DNA from: Methanotrichaceae archaeon
Lineage (GTDB): Archaea > Halobacteriota > Methanosarcinia > Methanotrichales > Methanotrichaceae
Direction: 5' to 3'
NCBI GenBank assembly: GCA_963754945.1
Contig: CAVWIG010000029.1
Coordinates: forward strand, 1 to 64,000
DNA: 64,000 nt
Shown here: in pieces, positions 242 to 62,757 of the stretch
Numbering within the stretch: the first letter of the stretch is position 1
Layout of the letters: every line of letters starts with the position of its first letter
Notes under the pieces: generated by a model
What the model saw: the letters and a program-made list of their open reading frames with translations, nothing else
Told to the model about the DNA's origin: nothing
The model's database searches: none
Position numbers and translations under genes: made by a program

Positions 242-545
242 TGAGATGTAGAGCCTGCTTGGCGCTTTAGGCCTTTGCGAACACCTGCGCCGCGCTGCTG
301 TTCCGTAGATCTCGCTAAACGACGGCTTGCTACGCCAATGACGGCGTGCACCTCTCTTGCCGCCTCCACCCATCACTATTGAAGGCGGGCGACCGAAGAC
401 TACGCAAGATTGCATGGCGCTCTTCCAGCCCCCTTTGAGATCCGCCACCGTACAATGAAGATGGCGGTCGACGCCCTTAGTCGCGTTTAGATCTCAGGCC
501 AACAGAGCTTAATCGGCGCTCCAGCGAGACTTGTGGCACAAAGCA
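242..545 (-). ncRNA. Candidate large structured ncRNA (copy A), 3' part cut by the IS5 insertion
   Basis: GC-rich non-coding stretch with about 10 collinear motif matches to 41377-41710, including TGCACGCCGTCATTGGCGTAGCAA (327-350), 22/24 identical to 41598-41621. Confidence 0.55.
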
Positions 546-755
546 CGGCAAACTACTACTATAATCGTTATGATTATATCTAGTTTTCGACTCGACGTGC
601 AAGTTCGAACAATTGCATTTCCCGGTATCTTAATCTATGAATCTGTAAATCCGTGACTCCACAGCAACCTTCAATAGTCATTAACTCTATATCAATCGTG
701 AATGGAGATCTTCTTCATCTACCATTTTTCCAGTTTTCCATCAAGGAGGTTCTAG

Positions 756-1082
756 ATGGCAGAAGGAATTATCCAGTTCGAGGTAGAGATCACTGACATG
801 GCCCGAATAAGATCTCGGGTGAGCTGGCCGGACTCGTCGGGACCGTGGATAGAAGGAGGGTTAGAAGATCTGATGGTGCATTTCACATATGCATGCTGGA
901 ACGCCCACATGCTTGGACACGCCGTCTCCCTGGCCTTGGCGAGTGGCGATGACCAATTGGGCCAGGCCGTGTCAAGCATGCTCTCCAAGACGATTGAGGC
1001 CATGGGAGCGGTTCAGATGGCTGAGATAAGGTTGAACCGGCAGGCAATGGACGACATGCGAAAGGACGGAACGCCTCCTTGA
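756..1082 (+). CDS. Hypothetical protein
   Basis: 108-aa ORF preceded by AAGGAGG ribosome-binding site. Confidence 0.6.
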   Translation: MAEGIIQFEVEITDMARIRSRVSWPDSSGPWIEGGLEDLMVHFTYACWNAHMLGHAVSLALASGDDQLGQAVSSMLSKTIEAMGAVQMAEIRLNRQAMDDMRKDGTPP

Positions 1083-12319: not shown

Positions 12320-13606
12320 TGAGAGTTTCGAAAAACTAATCAATCGAAATACTTATATACTATTAATACTATAATATAATGCATGAGGACTCTCATTGAT
12401 TTTGCCATTCGAGCAGAATATGCTCGAGTAAAAGCCCTCGGAGATGATCTATCCGAGATCGGATCGTTGATCAATTGGGAGCGTTTCAGATTTTTGGAAC
12501 CATTGATATACAAAAATAAAACTAGCCGCGGAGGTCGTCCGAACATTGACATCGTGATTATGGTGAAAGCTCTCGTAATTCAGCATTGGTTTGGTCTAAC
12601 AGATCCAGAACTGGAGCGACAGGTTGCGGATAGGATCTCTTTTCGTATTTTCCTTGGCACCACTGAAGTAATTCCTGATTTCAGCACAGTTTGGCTATTC
12701 CGTGAACGTTTGATTAAGTGCGACGTATACGATGATCTTTGGAATGAGCTTCAAAGGCAGCTCGATGAGATGGGGTTTACTGTAAAGAATGGCACTATCC
12801 AGGATGCAACCTTCATAACTTCGGACCCAGGTCGGAAGAGGAACAAGAAAGACGAGCAAGGCGGGGACAAAAAGGAAGGTCAAGATTCCGAAGCCACCAG
12901 TACGAGCCTGAATCAGGAGTTTGATAAAGAGCTAATTGGTATTTCAAATAATATTATTGATGACAAGGCCAAACCACAGAGACTCGAAGAAGAGCCAATA
13001 AATGAGGGAAGTTGGGCAAAAAAGGGTGTCAAATCCTTTTTCGGATATAAAGGTCATATCTCAATCGATACCAATTACCACCTTATCAGATATTTTGAGA
13101 CTACAACTGCTTCTGTACACGATAGTCAGGTAGATCTTGGAATTGAAGGGCTACCACGTTACGCCGATAAGGGATATGATGGTGCAAAAACTCGAGGATA
13201 TGATGCAGCCATGAAAAAAGCTACAAGAGGTCACAAGCTTGGAATCATAGATCTTCTGAGGAATAAGAGAATCAGTAAAACGCGATCGCACATCGAAAGA
13301 TGCTTCGCTGTTATGAAGCGGGGGCATAAGGGAGCACATGTTTATGTAACAACTGTCGCAAGAGCTGGAGTAAAATTCATGATGAATTCGGTCGTTTACA
13401 ACCTGGAACAGTTGAAATATTTAGTGCATAAACAAACAGCCTAGCGGAAGCTCTCTAAAAAAGCGCAAAAATTAGAAACAACAAGGTAAATTGAAATCTA
13501 ATAAGCCAATTTAGGGGTGAAATATGCTAAAAAACCACTATAAAGATTGAAAATATTAACGCAAGAATTTAAGGCTTCATTAACCAACACTAAATCGAAA
13601 CCCTCA
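12320..13606 (+). mobile_element. IS5-family insertion sequence
   Basis: TIRs TGAGAGTTTCGA / TCGAAACCCTCA flanked by a 3-bp ATG duplication (12317-12319, 13607-13609). Confidence 0.92.
12383..13444 (+). CDS. IS5-family transposase
   Basis: GGRP, PDFSTVWLFRE, QDAT, FGYKGH, ADKGY, RSHIERCF. Confidence 0.93.
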   Translation: MRTLIDFAIRAEYARVKALGDDLSEIGSLINWERFRFLEPLIYKNKTSRGGRPNIDIVIMVKALVIQHWFGLTDPELERQVADRISFRIFLGTTEVIPDFSTVWLFRERLIKCDVYDDLWNELQRQLDEMGFTVKNGTIQDATFITSDPGRKRNKKDEQGGDKKEGQDSEATSTSLNQEFDKELIGISNNIIDDKAKPQRLEEEPINEGSWAKKGVKSFFGYKGHISIDTNYHLIRYFETTTASVHDSQVDLGIEGLPRYADKGYDGAKTRGYDAAMKKATRGHKLGIIDLLRNKRISKTRSHIERCFAVMKRGHKGAHVYVTTVARAGVKFMMNSVVYNLEQLKYLVHKQTA

Positions 13607-36922: not shown

Positions 36923-38332
36923 CTGTACTTTCCAACTTTTTCGTATATTTATAATATCATCAGATTAAATTAGAATATAAATTTAATAAAAAAAATAAAA
37001 AGTAAGGGTTTTATACTAGGATCAAATTCTCTCTTTTGGGAGTAGAATGATCAAAATAATAAAGGTACCATTACAATTAGAGCCGTTCTTGAATGAATTT
37101 CAGGATCTTTTTACGAAACCGAGTTATGGATCGTTTCGAGATTTGTGTGGAGCGTTAAGCGTGTGTGATAAATCCAAGACCGTTTCCAACCTTTGTGATA
37201 CTATGGCCGAATGTAGGAAAGGAAAAAAAGCACGCTCTTCGTACAATTGGTTCTTTAGCGATGCGAATTGGGACGAGGATGAAGTTGCTCAACGCAAAGT
37301 GGACCTTTTTATTGAGAAATTATGTTTAAAAGAAAATGATAGAATGTTGTTAATAATTGATGACACATACAATGAGAAGGAAGGAACTCAAACGGAAGGT
37401 GTAGGAAAATTTTATGATCATAGTAAAGAAACCTACATTTGGGGTAACAATTTTGTTACCTCTGTTATCCAATCCAAAGGATTATTCATACCACATAAAG
37501 CTAAGATGTATATCAAGAATGATGACGAAAATGAGAATTTTAGAACAAAAATGGAGATTGCCTTGGACGAGATCATTGAACCATTAGAAGTACCAAAAAG
37601 CATGGACCTTTATATCGTTTTCGATAGCTGGTGGTTTTCTTCTGATCTCTTTAACAAGTGTCTCAAATTAGGGCATAATATAGTCTGCCAAATCAAATCT
37701 GATAAGAAAATCAGGATAAATAAGGACATGTGTTTTCAGGTTAGAGACTTAGCAAACCAAATTGAGGATAAGTATTTTATTAAGACAACTATTAGTGTTC
37801 GGGGCAAAAAGAAGACCTACTATGCATTTGAAAAGAAGGTAGTCATAGACAAGGTAGGCGAAGTTAAACTTGTAGTCTCAAAGAGAAAAAAGGAGAGCAC
37901 TACAAAATATTTTATAAGCACTAATGAATCGCTTTCGTCGAAAGAAATACTCTCAATTTACGAGGATAGATGGGATATCGAGACGGCCCACAGAGAGACA
38001 AATCAAAAATTAGGATTCAAAGATTACCAATTAAGAGAAAAACAATCAAATGAAAGATTTATTCAGCTAGTCTTCTCAGTATGGACTGCGATTCTCTTAT
38101 GGGAAATAGACAATCCGCCATCTGGGGACGGTTCAAATCCAAGAACTATGGGCGACATGATCGACCTAGTAAAAATGCAAGCATTAGGTGAAACATTTGA
38201 ATATGTGCTGATGTATTTTAATATACCCGTACCGGAAGGCGGATTGCTTTATATACTCAGAAGCATGGGATTGAAAATATAATTTGATATAATTTAGAAA
38301 ATATAAATAAAGGAGAAACTTGGAAAGTACAG
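36923..38332 (+). mobile_element. IS4/IS701-like DDE element (transposase 37047-38282)
   Basis: TIRs CTGTACTTTCCAA / TTGGAAAGTACAG; 8-bp TSD TAAAGGTA; IDDT, FDSWW, RWDIETAHR. Confidence 0.9.
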
Positions 38333-39125: not shown

Positions 39126-39497
39126 GAATATTATTTTTTTTAGTATCATTAGAATATGTTGGTCGATACCGCCATCCACTGGATGTGCAGAGAAGCTAAG
39201 AGGGCGATGATAAGATGAAGGGTTATCCAGACTACTCTAGCTCATCGGTTAGTTCCACGTTCTTCTTTGTTCATTGCGCCTCATTGTACTGACGCGACTG
39301 TAGGTATCCTGGTAACGATCGAATCGCCCTACCAGCTCTGCAATCACCATTGGGGCCGCCAGTTTCATCCCACCACGCGCACCCATCACCTTGGTACATG
39401 AAAATGTTTATGCAGGAAGCTCCTGAGTTTCTGTTCTAGTCGCCTCAGCATCCAAGGAAACCATTGATATTTATCCTTTCAAATTCCTTCTATCTGT

Positions 39498-40331
39498 ATG
39501 CCTAAGTTGAAGCCTCCTGAAGAAGTACAAAGAGGCAGTGAAGAAGAAAGCCTGGAACCCATACCGGGCCATCCAACCTGGTCCGGCAGCATCAGCATGG
39601 GACTGGTCAACATTCCGGTCCGGGCAATCCCAATCACATTAGAGAGGAAGATCAGCTTTCGGATGCTGCACCAGAAGTGCAAAACGCCCATCTCATACAA
39701 GCTTTTCTGCGAAGAGGGAGACGAGGTTTCCAAGAGCGAGATAGCTTACGGCTACAAGCTGAAAGGACACGACTATCTGGTCTTCGACAAAAGAGAGATA
39801 GCTTCAGCAAAACCCGTGTCCAGCAAGTTGATCGAGCTTGATATGTTCATTGAATTCTTCCAGGTGGACCCGCACTACTTCGAGAGGACTTTCCTCCTCA
39901 TACCTGACAACTCGGAGAAGCCCTATGCCTTACTCAGGAAAGTCCTGGAGAAGACCGGCCTGGCAGCTATAGGTAAGGTGACCATGAGCACCAAGGAGAG
40001 AGTCGTCCTCATCCATTACTACCATAATGCCATCGTCGCAACCACCCTGCGATACCCGGACGAGGTGACGGACCCCGCGCACTATGCGGAGATAAGGGAT
40101 CTGCCGGAGGCTAACGAGGAGGAGCTAGCCCTGATGACGAAGATAGTGGATAAGCTCACGGTGGACCTGGACCTCAGCATATTCCATGACGGCTACAAGG
40201 AACGGATCGAGGCCCTGATCAAATCCAAGATGAAAGGCGAGGTTGCACAGGTGCATGAGAAGAGGCCGAAGAAGCCTGTGGCCAAGAGCATGATGGAGGC
40301 GCTGAGGGAGACGGCGGAATCCTTGAAGTGA
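39498..40331 (+). CDS. ku: Prokaryotic Ku (NHEJ DNA-end-binding) protein
   Basis: WSGSISMGLVNIPV, YFERTFLL, KPYALLR, TLRYPDEV, MMEALRET. Confidence 0.93.
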   Translation: MPKLKPPEEVQRGSEEESLEPIPGHPTWSGSISMGLVNIPVRAIPITLERKISFRMLHQKCKTPISYKLFCEEGDEVSKSEIAYGYKLKGHDYLVFDKREIASAKPVSSKLIELDMFIEFFQVDPHYFERTFLLIPDNSEKPYALLRKVLEKTGLAAIGKVTMSTKERVVLIHYYHNAIVATTLRYPDEVTDPAHYAEIRDLPEANEEELALMTKIVDKLTVDLDLSIFHDGYKERIEALIKSKMKGEVAQVHEKRPKKPVAKSMMEALRETAESLK

Positions 40332-40848
40332 CTTCGGAGTGTCGCTAAAGCTTATATCTGGTGCCTCTTATTATGAGTCTGACTTTGCATAGGCCGAGTC
40401 ACTTAGGCCGATTCACTTTTTTCGTATTTCTCTCGTAATTCTCGTCTCGCCATTTTTGACAATCCTCCAGGTTCTTCTTGGAGAATTCGGTAAGGGGAAG
40501 TAGATCCATACTCATAACATAGTCACTCCTTATTATGTCCCAGTAATGGAAGATCTGATTTAAAACCTTTTTGGTATCTGTCTTAATATTTTTATTGATT
40601 CCCTCGACGAAGCTAGCGTCCTATCCAATAGGAAACTCGCCTCCGATACCGTTAATCCTCCAGTGTCCTTCGAAATTCCGTTCCAAGAAGCCCTATTTTC
40701 TAGAATTTTGTATGATACTATATTTAAATTTTATTTATTAAAACGTATCCTGGTTGCGTAGATAAGCGTAAGATGGGTTGCCCGGACCATTAAGAAAAGG
40801 AGGTAGGATGATGACGAGACTAATAGTCCAGGCGGGAGGTGTGTCATG

Positions 40849-41172
40849 CTAACTGATGGTTGACAGGTCGGCTAGTCCGGGTTTGACGCCGTTGGGCACG
40901 ACCTTATAGATTGTACCATAGATCTTTACTTGGACGTAGCCGTCCTTGACCGATGCATCGTAGTCGTGAGTGGCCAGGAAGAAGGCCAGATCATTTGGCG
41001 TCATGTGGGTATCTTCGTTCTGCGAGATTAACTTCGAGTGTTCAGTGCTCTCGGTTACCCCAGATGCATAGCGCGCAAGTCCGAATGCAATGCAGATCAA
41101 GACGGCAAGTAAGGACGGTACAATCTGTCTCGCATCATGGTAGTTAGATAGAGCTTCAGCTAATATATACAC
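40849..41172 (-). CDS. Hypothetical small protein, possibly secreted; start uncertain
   Basis: Hydrophobic stretch followed by DLAFFLATH..DGYVQV. Confidence 0.45.
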   Translation of the reverse strand: MYILAEALSNYHDARQIVPSLLAVLICIAFGLARYASGVTESTEHSKLISQNEDTHMTPNDLAFFLATHDYDASVKDGYVQVKIYGTIYKVVPNGVKPGLADLSTIS

Positions 41173-41257
41173 ACAAGAAAAAAGTCTTCTAAGTGTTAAG
41201 TAGAATCATTGCTAAGGTATCAGTAATACGAATTCACCTCGTATAATTTATTCCAAG

Positions 41258-41292
41258 TGAAGCAACCCTGGGGCTTCAGCCCCCGAGCTTGC
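41258..41292 (-). mobile_element. IS200/IS605-type end hairpin remnant
   Basis: Minus strand reads a CTCGGGG..GAAG..CCCCAGGG hairpin ending in TTGCTTCAC, typical of IS605/tnpB right ends. Confidence 0.5.
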
Positions 41293-41399
41293 TATTCATT
41301 TGAGGGTTAGCCGTCTTTCATTTGTCCTAAAATCGGTTTCCTATCGACAACTACAAATACCTATAACGAGTATATAAGTAGTTTGCCGCTTCATGCATA

Positions 41400-41866
41400 G
41401 GGTGGCGGGTGTACCGTGGGCTTAACGTACCGATAATGCTCTGAACGCAAGGGAAAAGGTGTTTGCTCCTGAGCGGGGCAGCATACGGTGGCTCCTAGGG
41501 CTGACCGATCAAGAAATTCCTTGATGAAGAGGTGCATGCCTTCGTGGCAGTGCATTCGGCTACGAGCCTGTTGGGCTGAAATTCGGCAGAGGAAAGTTGC
41601 ACGCCGTAATTTGCGTAGCAATCTGCCGACAGGCTTAACGCTAATACACGGTCGGGGCATGACGCGGCACATGCCAAAGGCAGAAGTCGAGCACGAGGCC
41701 CTGCATCTTGCGATGATTGGGTCCCTATGAAAGGGGCGCTGTGTGAAATTCCAGTGCTGTGCCGCCTTCTAGCCCAGGCGTATAATCGAACTCTGAGCTG
41801 GGTCTGGCCTGCACACTGACAGGTTCCTTCTACAAGGGCGCTGTGGATCGGCGTTGGCCCCGCCTG
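41400..41866 (+). ncRNA. Candidate large (~470 nt) structured ncRNA (copy B)
   Basis: TATATAA box at 41371; near-continuous hairpins with G-U pairs favouring the + strand; 5' GGCGGG pairs with 3' CCCGCC; homologous to 242-557 on the minus strand. Confidence 0.65.
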
Positions 41867-42194
41867 AGTCTTCGATTTAGCTATTTTCTGGTTATCCATC
41901 TATAACCTCATTGCTCCAAAGCTCCAAAGCGAAAACCTTAAATATCGGCCATAGACGTATGATATATTGGCAAAAGTCGATACTCTGTTTTCTTGCATAG
42001 GCTTTTGCCTCCCTCCTTATTACGACACATAGCCCTTTCACGGCGCTATAAAGTCTCTTCACGGGCTTTCCGCCCCAGGTATGCGCTGTGTTTCTTGCAT
42101 TCAATCATCCAGGAAGCGTGTCATATTGGTGCTTCTTGCCTTTCTGAGGTCTCCCAAATAGCAAAAGTTGTTATCCTTTGAATTCCTCTATCAG

Positions 42195-42500
42195 TATCCC
42201 AAACTAAGCTTACCGACGAAGTGAAAAAGGCGACTAAGAAGAAACCATAGGATACATACCAGGCAAGCCAAATAGGTCAGACCAATATCAGCACGGGCCT
42301 GGTCAACATTTCTGCGAGGGCGATCCCAATATTTAGAGCGGAAGATCCGCTTTCGAATCCTGCAAATGAAGTGCAGTACACCATTTCTATCTTACAGGCC
42401 ATTTTGTGAAGAAGGGGACAAGGTTCTCAAGAGCGAGATGGCCTACTCTTGCAAACTGAAAAGGCACGGTTACCTGGTCTTCGATAAAACCCAAGAGAGA
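42195..42500 (+). pseudogene. Decayed copy of the 5' third of ku
   Basis: Aligns to 39498-39800, e.g. ATCAGCACGGGCCTGGTCAACATT and AAGAGCGAGATGGCCTAC..CTGGTCTTCGATAAA; frameshifted. Confidence 0.8.
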
Positions 42501-42512
42501 TAACAAGGCCTG

Positions 42513-43883
42513 TTAGACTATAGGAGTTAGACTTATCTTGTTCTGGTTTTCAAAAAGCAGATTGTAGGGCTCAGTCCTGGGTATAATCCCGTAAAGGCAT
42601 AAGCCGCCGTTTAGTTCGTTGACAAGGAAGTATGTATCGGCTGTGTGGATGGCCATGTTGATGCTCTCCTGGCCAGTTTTCACTACCAGAACATTTATGT
42701 CGTTGGTCTCCTTCCACTTGCGGATCATCCGGTTGGCCATCATGTTCAGGAGCTTCTTGTAGCCGAATGCAAACTCCATTGCATCCATGCCGATTATGTT
42801 GAGGATGGGCCTTCCAGTCCTCTCCCTTAGGCCATCCCATTTTTCCAACAGCTCTTTACCCCAAGCCACTAGGTCTTCGTCTTCTTCTGGTTGGGAGATC
42901 ACTACATTGGTCGGAACGAATATGTCCCGAGAGCTGAGCTGATACCCGATGCTTGGAAGTATAAAGACGCCTCTGCCGTTCTTTAGGGCGTTGGAGGCCA
43001 AAGCAGTCAGGATCTGGTAATACCTCTTGCCAACTCCGTGATCGATTTCGATTACGTTGCAGGAGCCGTATTTTAATCCGCCAGTCAGTATGTCGAGGTC
43101 GGGAATACCGGTGGAGATCCTGGACTCTCCCGGATCCGGAACCCTGACGACATCGCTGGCAATCCTTGCATCCTGATGTTCGCGGTAGGGCTCGAAGTAT
43201 CTGAATCGACCGCCGTGTAAGGTTGTAGTGTAGTTCTTCTGCCTGATCTCAACGCCTCTGAGCTTGTCCAGTCTGATCTGCCTGGCATACCTGGTTCTCA
43301 TGCCATTAGGGCTTTCTGTGCCCGAGCTTCCCATCAGCTTGAACTGATCCATGGTCACCACACCGTCGACGATGTAGTCCAAGGGCATGATGTCGGCGAA
43401 CTCACTGACAAGAATCAGGTGAATCCCGGTGTCTCGACCAAACTCGCACATGTTCTGCTCAAAGCTGTGCTGGGTATCCTCTATGAAGTGAGCTGTATAA
43501 TTCAGAACGGCGTCCCAGCTGTCGATGACAATCATTGGATTGTCCATCTCCTCAGCCTCATCGAAGAAGACCCTGAAGAAATCCAGTACCGCATCGTATT
43601 CAGAGAGCTCTCGGCTGGCGCCTTTCAGGCTCTTGAGGAGCCTGTTTTGTGTTGCGTTGATCACATTCTTCGGCGGGATTATATCGCTTATCCACGGGGT
43701 AGTGGCATAGAGACGTTGTGGATCGACTCGAGTTGAGATGTATACGCCATTCTTCTTCTCACACAATGTGTTTAAGATCTCCAGGGCTAGAGTTGTCTTC
43801 CCAGTTCCCGGCAACCCCTTTATCAAGAGTGCCTGGCCATCTTCAATCCCGAAGAAGTCTTTGATTTCCTTGGGAATGTGCAT
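42513..43883 (-). CDS. GvpD/KaiC-like RecA-superfamily P-loop ATPase (two domains)
   Basis: KGLPGTGKTT, IVIDSWD, LDYIVDGVV, KLRG, second domain ISTGIPDLD. Confidence 0.85.
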   Translation of the reverse strand: MHIPKEIKDFFGIEDGQALLIKGLPGTGKTTLALEILNTLCEKKNGVYISTRVDPQRLYATTPWISDIIPPKNVINATQNRLLKSLKGASRELSEYDAVLDFFRVFFDEAEEMDNPMIVIDSWDAVLNYTAHFIEDTQHSFEQNMCEFGRDTGIHLILVSEFADIMPLDYIVDGVVTMDQFKLMGSSGTESPNGMRTRYARQIRLDKLRGVEIRQKNYTTTLHGGRFRYFEPYREHQDARIASDVVRVPDPGESRISTGIPDLDILTGGLKYGSCNVIEIDHGVGKRYYQILTALASNALKNGRGVFILPSIGYQLSSRDIFVPTNVVISQPEEDEDLVAWGKELLEKWDGLRERTGRPILNIIGMDAMEFAFGYKKLLNMMANRMIRKWKETNDINVLVVKTGQESINMAIHTADTYFLVNELNGGLCLYGIIPRTEPYNLLFENQNKISLTPIV

Positions 43884-62670: not shown

Positions 62671-62757
62671 TGCGTCGACCGGGATTCGAACCCGGGTTGT
62701 AGGCTTGCTTCGCAAACGCATGGAAGGCCCAAGTCATGGCCACTAGACCATCGACGC
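62671..62757 (-). tRNA. tRNA-Gly(TCC) with a 15-nt intron (62706-62720)
   Basis: GCGTCGA...TCGACGC-A acceptor; TGGGC-CTTCCA-[TGCGTTTGCGAAGCA]-A-GCCTA; GGTTCGAATCC. Confidence 0.93.

Follow-up and report, generated by a model that had tools for sequence, protein, structure and literature searches.

The DNA studied here, referred to as the window, is a 64,000-nucleotide (nt) stretch of a Methanotrichaceae archaeon (GenBank assembly GCA_963754945.1, contig CAVWIG010000029.1, positions 1 to 64,000), and its beginning carries, at 242–592 on the minus strand, what is in all probability a copy (copy A) of a gene for a large structured RNA that was truncated by an insertion sequence (IS); this assignment concerns identity and anatomy only, not functional mechanism. 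A profile search of the whole genome for the RNA family returned four copies, namely copy A, the intact copy B in the same window, copy C on contig 17 and copy D on contig 52 (Table 1). The reading of copy A as a second copy that was cut by an IS5-family element, with a promoter-like leader that is conserved, is borne out, and taken alone it is nothing unusual. Its interest lies in its membership of a lineage-specific, apparently undescribed family of large structured RNAs, which it helps to dissect and for which environmental RNA libraries show deep coverage.

A first-pass annotation made from the sequence alone had paired two 45-mers, one upstream of copy A and the other at 41344–41388, and had proposed that the homology continues for about 300 nt and stops at the IS end. 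Both 45-mers were located there, the first at 590→546 on the minus strand (within the stretch 592→546), and they are 80% identical (79.5% over 44 nt in a separate alignment). An nhmmer search of the whole 2.97-Mb genome with copy B alone aligned window positions 590→239 with positions 5–374 of the query, that is, to about 41713 (E = 1.2e-9), and the homology of copy A ends at 240/241, which is the IS terminus. Family profiles built from relatives scored copy A at E = 1.5e-36 and 1.1e-39 in the genome search. The local alignment of the two leaders scored 45, against 14.6 ± 2.8 (maximum 30, z = 10.9) for 500 dinucleotide shuffles, and that of the two RNA bodies, identical at 183 of 291 positions (63%), scored 42, against 19.5 ± 2.4 (maximum 28, z = 9.3) for as many. 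Dinucleotide shuffling was the control named by the first-pass annotation, and given that the alignments lie 9–11 standard deviations above it, copy A is a true paralogue of the gene at 41343–41888, though a divergent one.

Interruption of copy A by an IS5-family element

The element that abuts copy A is 1286 bp long and bears terminal inverted repeats (GAGAGTTTCGA / GAGGGTTTCGA) that agree in 10 of 11 bases. Its transposase of 353 amino acids (aa) carries DUF772 (E = 1.5e-20) and DDE_Tnp_1 (E = 3.1e-13), and because of these two domains we place it in the IS5 family, as had been proposed before. The N-terminal position of DUF772, the length of about 1.3 kb, the short inverted repeats and the target duplications of 3–4 bp are all those of that family. 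Across the genome, 33 full-length and 27 partial copies were counted, 99.6–100% identical, and most of the full ones lie between 3–4-bp flanks that agree (e.g. AATT/AATT and CTAT/CTAT). At the copy A locus a single junction is visible. Because no IS copy above 76% identity was found in four relatives, the expansion is, as judged from these comparisons, a recent burst specific to this lineage, which is the only unusual feature of the element within its family. The full copy at 12320–13605 is an exception to the matching flanks, which suggests recombination between IS copies.

Evidence that the IS cut the gene comes from two species of the same genus (G001 and G002), in which the A locus, comprising the gene for tRNA-Gln, a divergent open reading frame (ORF) of 108 aa, the leader and the RNA, is syntenic. 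The G002 locus (on its contig C68) is 87% identical to the A locus over 1007/1009 nt, and the G001 locus, split over two contigs, is 93–94% identical. Both orthologues read ...ATCTCATGGTG... continuously across the insertion point, and their RNAs run about 150 nt beyond it (...ATCTCAT/GGTG...). They match the family model over positions 8–520 (G001) and 3–520 (G002), and their 3′ domains, which in G001 reads GGTGTTGAGTC..., scored 106.2 bits (G001) and 98.6 bits (G002) with R1, a covariance model of the 3′ domain. Since uninterrupted orthologues in sister species carry about 150 nt more, the gene was cut by the IS, and the earlier proposal of an IS5 insertion into a longer copy is upheld. As a separate observation, the G001 orthologue is intact (L045 and L041; G001:C40 and G001:C98), and synteny with the upstream ORF and tRNA gene breaks in its leader, at about leader position 8, with the halves on different contigs; either a rearrangement or a repeat at the promoter might account for this.

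The first base of the window is the first base of contig 29, and the assembly breaks there inside the IS. The missing 3′ piece is not in the assembly, because the window begins at this contig end. Among the 48 far IS ends that reach the last bases of the element (8 of them at contig ends), no flank begins with TCAT followed by GGTG..., and neither the family profile nor R1, each run over the whole genome, found the remainder of copy A; within the window, R1 gave no match in copy A. BLAST with the orthologous 3′ part and with 7 kb of downstream sequence from G002 returned only a 71% paralogue on contig 9 and a 419-bp piece on contig 28. A weak R1 match on contig 54 (12428–12510, minus strand, 22.6 bits) covers the first module of the 3′ domain only and is unlike the copy A orthologues; either a fifth copy has decayed there to a remnant or the match is due to chance. 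Because the genome assembly is 87.7% complete and at least one IS copy has non-matching flanks, an assembly gap and a loss by IS–IS recombination (deletion or inversion) are equally plausible explanations of the missing 3′ part.

The promoter of copy A faces the IS and points in the same direction as the transposase gene, whose ATG lies at 178. No T-run was seen on inspection of positions 241–179, between the RNA remnant and this ATG, and read-through from the copy A promoter into the transposase gene is possible.

Fold, leader and distribution of the RNA family

Members of the family, roughly 340–540 nt long, fall into length classes of about 490–540 nt, about 450 nt (with an internal deletion) and about 350–375 nt, and the RNA has two domains. 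The 5′ domain is closed by a helix, P1, in which the first 8–12 nt of the RNA pair with a strand that immediately precedes the 3′ domain and lies about 245–270 nt further on in copies A and B (about 260 nt in copy A). Among 52 distinct sequences, 323 of 355 P1 cells are paired (91%), against 24–56% with slid partners, and 31 cells show double changes, against 1–7 with slid partners; the variants include GCCGCG/CGCGGC, GUCGCA/UGCGAU and ACCGCG/CGCGGU, with GCCGUG/CGCGGC in copy A. Within the domain, an inner helix (CCGA/UCGG) is 98.5% paired, and a conserved hairpin has an outer stem that is 88% paired and shows UA-to-AU exchanges. In copy A, the minimum-energy fold of 286–551 forms P1 (−114.9 kcal/mol, z = −3.2), and none of 200 shuffles was as low.

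Two similar modules in tandem, both four-way junctions, make up the 3′ domain; each has a closing helix around three hairpins, of which the last two are CCYU...RRGG and GCGCUG...CRGYGC. Its 7 helices with 29 pairs are paired in 94.0% of cells among 46 sequences, against 32–50% with slid partners. Two-sided changes occur at 12 pairs and in 66 cells, against 7.6 pairs and 26 cells in shuffles, and the observed values were reached by 0 of 500 shuffles on four of five measures and by 3 of 500 on the fifth. The helices were set by hand and then counted, since from MAFFT or HMM alignments RNAalifold had returned the fold in fragments only.

Copy A thus has the leader and the P1-closed 5′ domain and lacks the two-module 3′ domain, which is the truncation. 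The IS sits after ...ATCTCAT, in the loop of the first 3′-domain hairpin, and copy A retains the P1-closed domain plus a 47-nt linker. Two natural genes consist of the 5′ domain only: copy D, with a small hairpin and a U-rich stretch downstream and no IS nearby, and L018. Because such genes exist, what is left of copy A may yet yield a folded product. As a truncation allele made by nature, the IS-cut copy shows that the 5′ domain is able to fold by itself, and it marks the domain boundary.

The roughly 42 bp upstream of the RNA are more strongly conserved across paralogues than the RNA itself. An inverted repeat, AAACTA...TAGTTT, brackets this leader and is plausibly the site of a dimeric regulator. 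CGMAAACT and the A/T-rich box after it lie at the distance from the P1-defined start that the archaeal consensus calls for (about 24–36 nt upstream of the transcription start); they are presumably a B recognition element (BRE) and a TATA box, and the leader would be a BRE/TATA promoter. In the genome, a leader profile matched only the 4 copies at E < 0.001, the next match having E = 6.4; copy A was hit at 589–545 (E = 5.4e-9). Because only the four copies are matched, the leader would be a family-specific promoter rather than a general promoter of stable RNAs. The claim of a conserved leader upstream of the RNA therefore stands as regards a family-specific, promoter-like element and needs correction at its end: the final GCCG is already RNA, because P1 pairs those bases, and judged by the covariation of P1 the 5′ end of the RNA is at or before the G of GCCG.

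The earlier description of the unit as multicopy also agrees with a count across genomes. R1 gave 372 matches in 84 of 101 Methanotrichaceae genomes, this genome included (83 of the 100 others, with 1–14 matches each), and none in the sampled genomes of four genera (0/1, 0/3, 0/7 and 0/2). At class level, 52 of 69 genomes within Methanotrichaceae were matched and 1 of 71 elsewhere, that one weakly (E = 3.3e-4). With BLAST, the RNA turned up in 15 of 24 other Methanotrichaceae genomes, whereas 0 of 16 genomes from two neighbouring families had it. A 22-nt pattern occurred at 31 loci in named public genomes, of which 29 are titled Methanothrix, Methanosaeta, Methanotrichaceae or uncultured Methanosarcinales. 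A full-length copy labelled ‘Micrarchaeota’ lies on a 2.1-kb contig that is probably mis-binned, and an Arenicella locus (L055) was a 29-nt chance match. Viral contigs gave 0 matches to the motif.

No Rfam 15 family reached its gathering score, and the whole window yielded two tRNAs only; at E ≤ 10, copies A and B drew chance-level scores of 12–16 bits, against cut-offs of 45–100. Archaeal RNase P RNA (RF00373) and archaeal signal recognition particle RNA (RF01857) were rejected as identities: their genes lie elsewhere in the genome, on contig 10 (32077–32378, 208.6 bits) and contig 18 (123506–123821, 180.7 bits), respectively, and copies A and B were not matched. The literature searched on Methanothrix/Methanosaeta held no description of such an RNA, a negative bounded by that literature and no proof of absence; the large folded non-coding RNA family of Methanothrix-type archaea is apparently undescribed. 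Homologues of the 108-aa ORF stand upstream of the RNA in L034 and in G019 (contig C5, 77469–77749). Given that this same divergent ORF lies upstream of the RNA in genera g1 and g4, we infer vertical inheritance of the family, with a sequence that evolves fast while the fold is kept.

RNA libraries and neighbouring features

Of 20 public runs that hold part of copy B, 9 are RNA libraries. Contigs from four metatranscriptomes of peat and freshwater (four studies) cover copy B from about 41401 to about 41823; the RNA-library contigs begin at 41394–41415, with an adapter-like loose end at 41394. The summed word depths over copy B reached 3.2e5, 5.4e3, 1.9e5 and 1.3e3. Depths in the flanks of copy B (40600–41339 and 41932–42800) were 0–14, the small RNA gene at 41969–42019 was uncovered, and the 3′ domain was 10–1000 times below the 5′ domain, values that are not usable as evidence, as contig depths and gaps in cover do not rank regions. 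With its own family-specific leader and with metatranscriptome contigs over the body of the intact copy, the unit is in keeping with the self-contained transcription unit that the first-pass annotation had proposed.

The features of the window and the other copies in the genome are listed in Table 1. ORF clustering, with Pfam searches of selected neighbours, detected no recurrent partner gene; DUF1699 occurred at 3 loci of 2 genomes. Elsewhere in the window, a tRNA-Trp(CCA) gene (62671–62757, minus strand) is interrupted behind the anticodon loop by 17 nt, an intron of the archaeal type. An ORF of 411 aa (37047–38282, plus strand), situated in AT-rich DNA immediately upstream of the Ku region discussed below, looks, by eye, like an IS4/ISH-type transposase.

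Table 1 Features of the window and further copies of the RNA gene in the genome
Feature	Position	Strand	Evidence and remarks
Left end of 1286-bp IS5-family element; contig and window begin inside it	1–240	−	100% identical to 12320–12560 and 42 other places in the genome
IS transposase, first 59 codons	2–178	−	Identical to the start of the 353-aa ORF at 12383–13444
Insertion point TCAT (RNA strand), abutting the IS end; expected target-site duplication	241–244	−	Sequence; orthologues uninterrupted
Copy A, probable truncated RNA gene: whole 5′ domain and linker, to the loop of the first 3′-domain hairpin	242–549	−	nhmmer, model positions 3–372 of ~530; orthologue alignment
5′ domain of copy A, closed by P1 with strands 549–542 (GCCGUGCU) / 296–289 (AGCGCGGC)	289–549	−	Covariation and minimum-energy fold
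Leader of copy A: BRE-like CGAAAACT (~582–589), A/T-rich box (~572–581), conserved stretch to the start	550–592	−	Alignment of 52 copies; profile
108-aa ORF, divergent from copy A, 0 Pfam families	756–1079	+	Kept beside the RNA in other genera
tRNA-Gln(CTG), synteny common to G001 and G002	1144–1217	−	Rfam scan
Complete copy of the same IS; flanks non-matching	12320–13605	+	Full-copy definition, ORF, Pfam
Copy B, intact unit	41343–41888	+
Putative promoter leader of copy B	41343–41384	+	Leader alignment/profile
RNA of copy B; P1 strands 41385–41396 / 41657–41668; end before T-run 41884–41887	41385–41888	+	nhmmer, P1 alignment
3′ domain of copy B: two tandem four-way-junction modules; part missing from copy A	41695–41873	+	R1, 161.1 bits
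Small hairpin RNA gene with CCUCCCUCC motifs, 3′ of copy B	41969–42019	+	Model R2, 59.6 bits
Copy C	contig 17		85% identical to copy B
Copy D (L085:511–830): leader and P1-closed 5′ domain only	contig 52, 16810–17129		Model positions 1–332

Possible function, rival readings and comparison with known RNAs

Several points weigh against the reading of copy A as an IS-truncated member of a structured-RNA gene family. The search for the far IS junction came up empty, and a simple insertion therefore looks the same as one with a later IS-mediated deletion or inversion; at 12320–13605 the flanks of the full IS copy do not match, and the 7 kb downstream of the G002 orthologue are almost without counterpart in this genome. 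The shuffle controls of the fold were not corrected for relatedness, and related sequences inflate them; in the 5′ domain, structure is established for P1, the inner helix P2 and one hairpin only. The RNA-library evidence concerns B-like sequences, not copy A, and the contigs show neither strand, ends nor level. No protein partner is indicated, the flanking genes being unconserved across loci, and the functional mechanism is a matter of inference.

As to function, the large RNA would be a very abundant, stable, trans-acting and protein-binding molecule, serving as a scaffold or for sequestering rather than acting in cis or regulating by base pairing. The protein would probably bind at the invariant stems and loops of the two 3′ modules, with the 5′ domain as a separable unit able to act alone. 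That it is a stable trans-acting RNA working through a bound protein we propose tentatively, at somewhat short of an even chance; what is left beside this and the base-pairing role weighed below falls to catalysis, RNA-only assembly or something else. A broader joint reading, unlikely as a whole, is that the family represents a new class of large archaeal RNA and ranks among the most abundant Methanothrix transcripts in peat and freshwater sediment, that its P1-closed 5′ domain is an autonomous particle (a ribonucleoprotein or RNA only), possibly freed from the 3′ domain by processing at the domain boundary, that the product of copy A is working, and that its very strong promoter, reading into the transposase gene, may have fuelled the strain-specific burst of the IS to about 60 copies.

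A base-pairing role was considered in view of a second, small RNA, a hairpin of about 50–63 nt (GGCAAAAGUC...GACUUUUGCC) that carries CCUCCCUCC in its loop and/or tail and has its own A/T-rich box. The small RNA gene lies 15–180 nt downstream of the large RNA, on the same strand, at 29 of 54 loci (L012, L015, L017 and L064 among them) and upstream at none of the 54, where chance alone would give about 0.011 per 400 nt. The large RNA could then be a base-pairing regulator or sponge tied to CCUCC small RNAs or to ribosome-binding sites, with its variable centre giving specificity and the adjacent small RNA as its partner, and many long forms do carry AGGAG or GAGGUG just 5′ of a conserved hairpin. 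However, duplexes between small and large RNAs were no stronger than those of shuffled RNA (21 pairs; a weak test, as it used mononucleotide shuffles and unrestricted duplex length), and A-type and short forms have no small RNA neighbour. With the small-RNA model R2, 19 matches were found in the genome, only 2 of them beside the large RNA, and the small RNA was present in all 4 tested genomes that have no 3′ domain of the large RNA; co-occurrence is not obligate. We regard a base-pairing role as improbable, and the adjacency of the two RNAs is best read as an old duplicated two-gene unit.

Far less probable is an origin of the repeats as a non-autonomous mobile element, resembling a miniature inverted-repeat transposable element or a short interspersed nuclear element, with the leader as one end. 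In its favour are the copy number, which reaches 14 matches in a genome, the inverted repeat (AAACTA...TAGTTT) in the leader, and the further 420 nt or so that B and C have in common downstream. Yet copies within a genome are only 63–85% alike and show compensatory changes in helices, the A locus is syntenic in three species, the neighbouring ORF is kept across genera, and the alignments show no terminal repeats or target duplications flanking the unit, and because of these features a mobile origin is unlikely; there were also 0 viral-contig matches. The extension common to B and C is itself a segmental duplication that includes the small RNA gene: the homology (41880–42297 and 39470–39602; contig 17, 245008–245968; L012) continues beyond the RNA for about 420 nt and stops in a pseudo-5′ end of Ku (PKLKPPEE...). 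In G001 an RNA copy lies directly upstream of an intact Ku gene, and here the Ku gene (39498–40331) lies upstream of copy B. By these alignments, a single genus-specific segment was duplicated, comprising the large RNA, the small RNA and the beginning of Ku.

It is also very doubtful that copy A is a natural short member, made of the 5′ domain only, with the IS having merely landed beside its end. Genes of this kind do exist, as contig 52 (16810–17129) and L018 illustrate, but orthologues that are 94% and 87% identical continue into the 3′ domain (R1 scores of 106 and 99 bits), and the homology of copy A extends 47 nt past P1 to the IS end, into the 5′ halves of helices H2 and H3. Least credible of all is a cis-acting leader or a small-protein gene: open frames of 41–134 codons do overlap both copies, but the ORF clusters inside the RNA are in different frames and strands with none kept between A and B, substitutions are compensatory in helices and not codon-periodic, and the downstream genes vary and are often convergent, e.g. 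the KaiC/GvpD-like gene after copy B. A transposon guide RNA (omega RNA or bridge RNA) was considered and rejected: at about 30 loci, ORF clustering and Pfam searches of selected neighbours revealed no TnpB, IscB or IS110 gene within 1.5 kb, and the IS beside copy A is a later insertion that is lacking in the orthologues.

For the preferred reading, a large trans-acting structured RNA, several known RNAs offer comparisons. To our knowledge, large highly structured RNAs of unknown function are rare, and the well-known ones (OLE, GOLLD, ROOL and raiA) are bacterial. OLE RNA is reported to be about 500–600 nt long, to have an intricate conserved fold, very high expression and no known biochemical function, and to act as a ribonucleoprotein (PMC9723947, PMC3413148, PMC12054373). 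The large RNA described here is similar in being about 500 nt long and folded, in having no assigned function and in its deep coverage in RNA libraries. In contrast to OLE RNA, which is bacterial (Bacillota), single-copy and in an operon with partner protein genes, the present family is archaeal and multicopy with several length classes, has its own conserved promoter and no conserved protein neighbour, and gave no sequence or covariance-model match to it.

GOLLD and ROOL are reported to form RNA-only multimers (10.1101/2024.12.08.627333). Like these and the raiA motif, the present RNA is a large orphan structured RNA that came from comparative genomics, and its repeated similar modules could mediate assembly; those RNAs, however, are bacterial or phage-associated, and the present one had no Rfam match and was found on 0 viral contigs. 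The 6S and Y RNAs are stable, abundant, trans-acting and protein-binding, with ends paired in a closing stem, and their partners are RNA polymerase and Ro, respectively. The closing stem with paired ends is also seen here, whereas 6S and Y RNAs are much shorter, usually single-copy and have known partners, and no archaeal 6S or Y family was matched in Rfam.

In wetlands, rice fields and digesters, Methanothrix is one of the chief methane producers that live on acetate, and there is almost no genetics for it. A lineage-specific family of two-domain RNAs of about 500 nt, with many paralogues, a dedicated promoter and very deep coverage in environmental RNA libraries, would join the short list of large structured RNAs and give structural studies and pull-down experiments a concrete target. 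Metagenome-assembled genomes carry such RNAs without annotation, and in metatranscriptomes they can take a sizeable share of the reads that are not ribosomal RNA.

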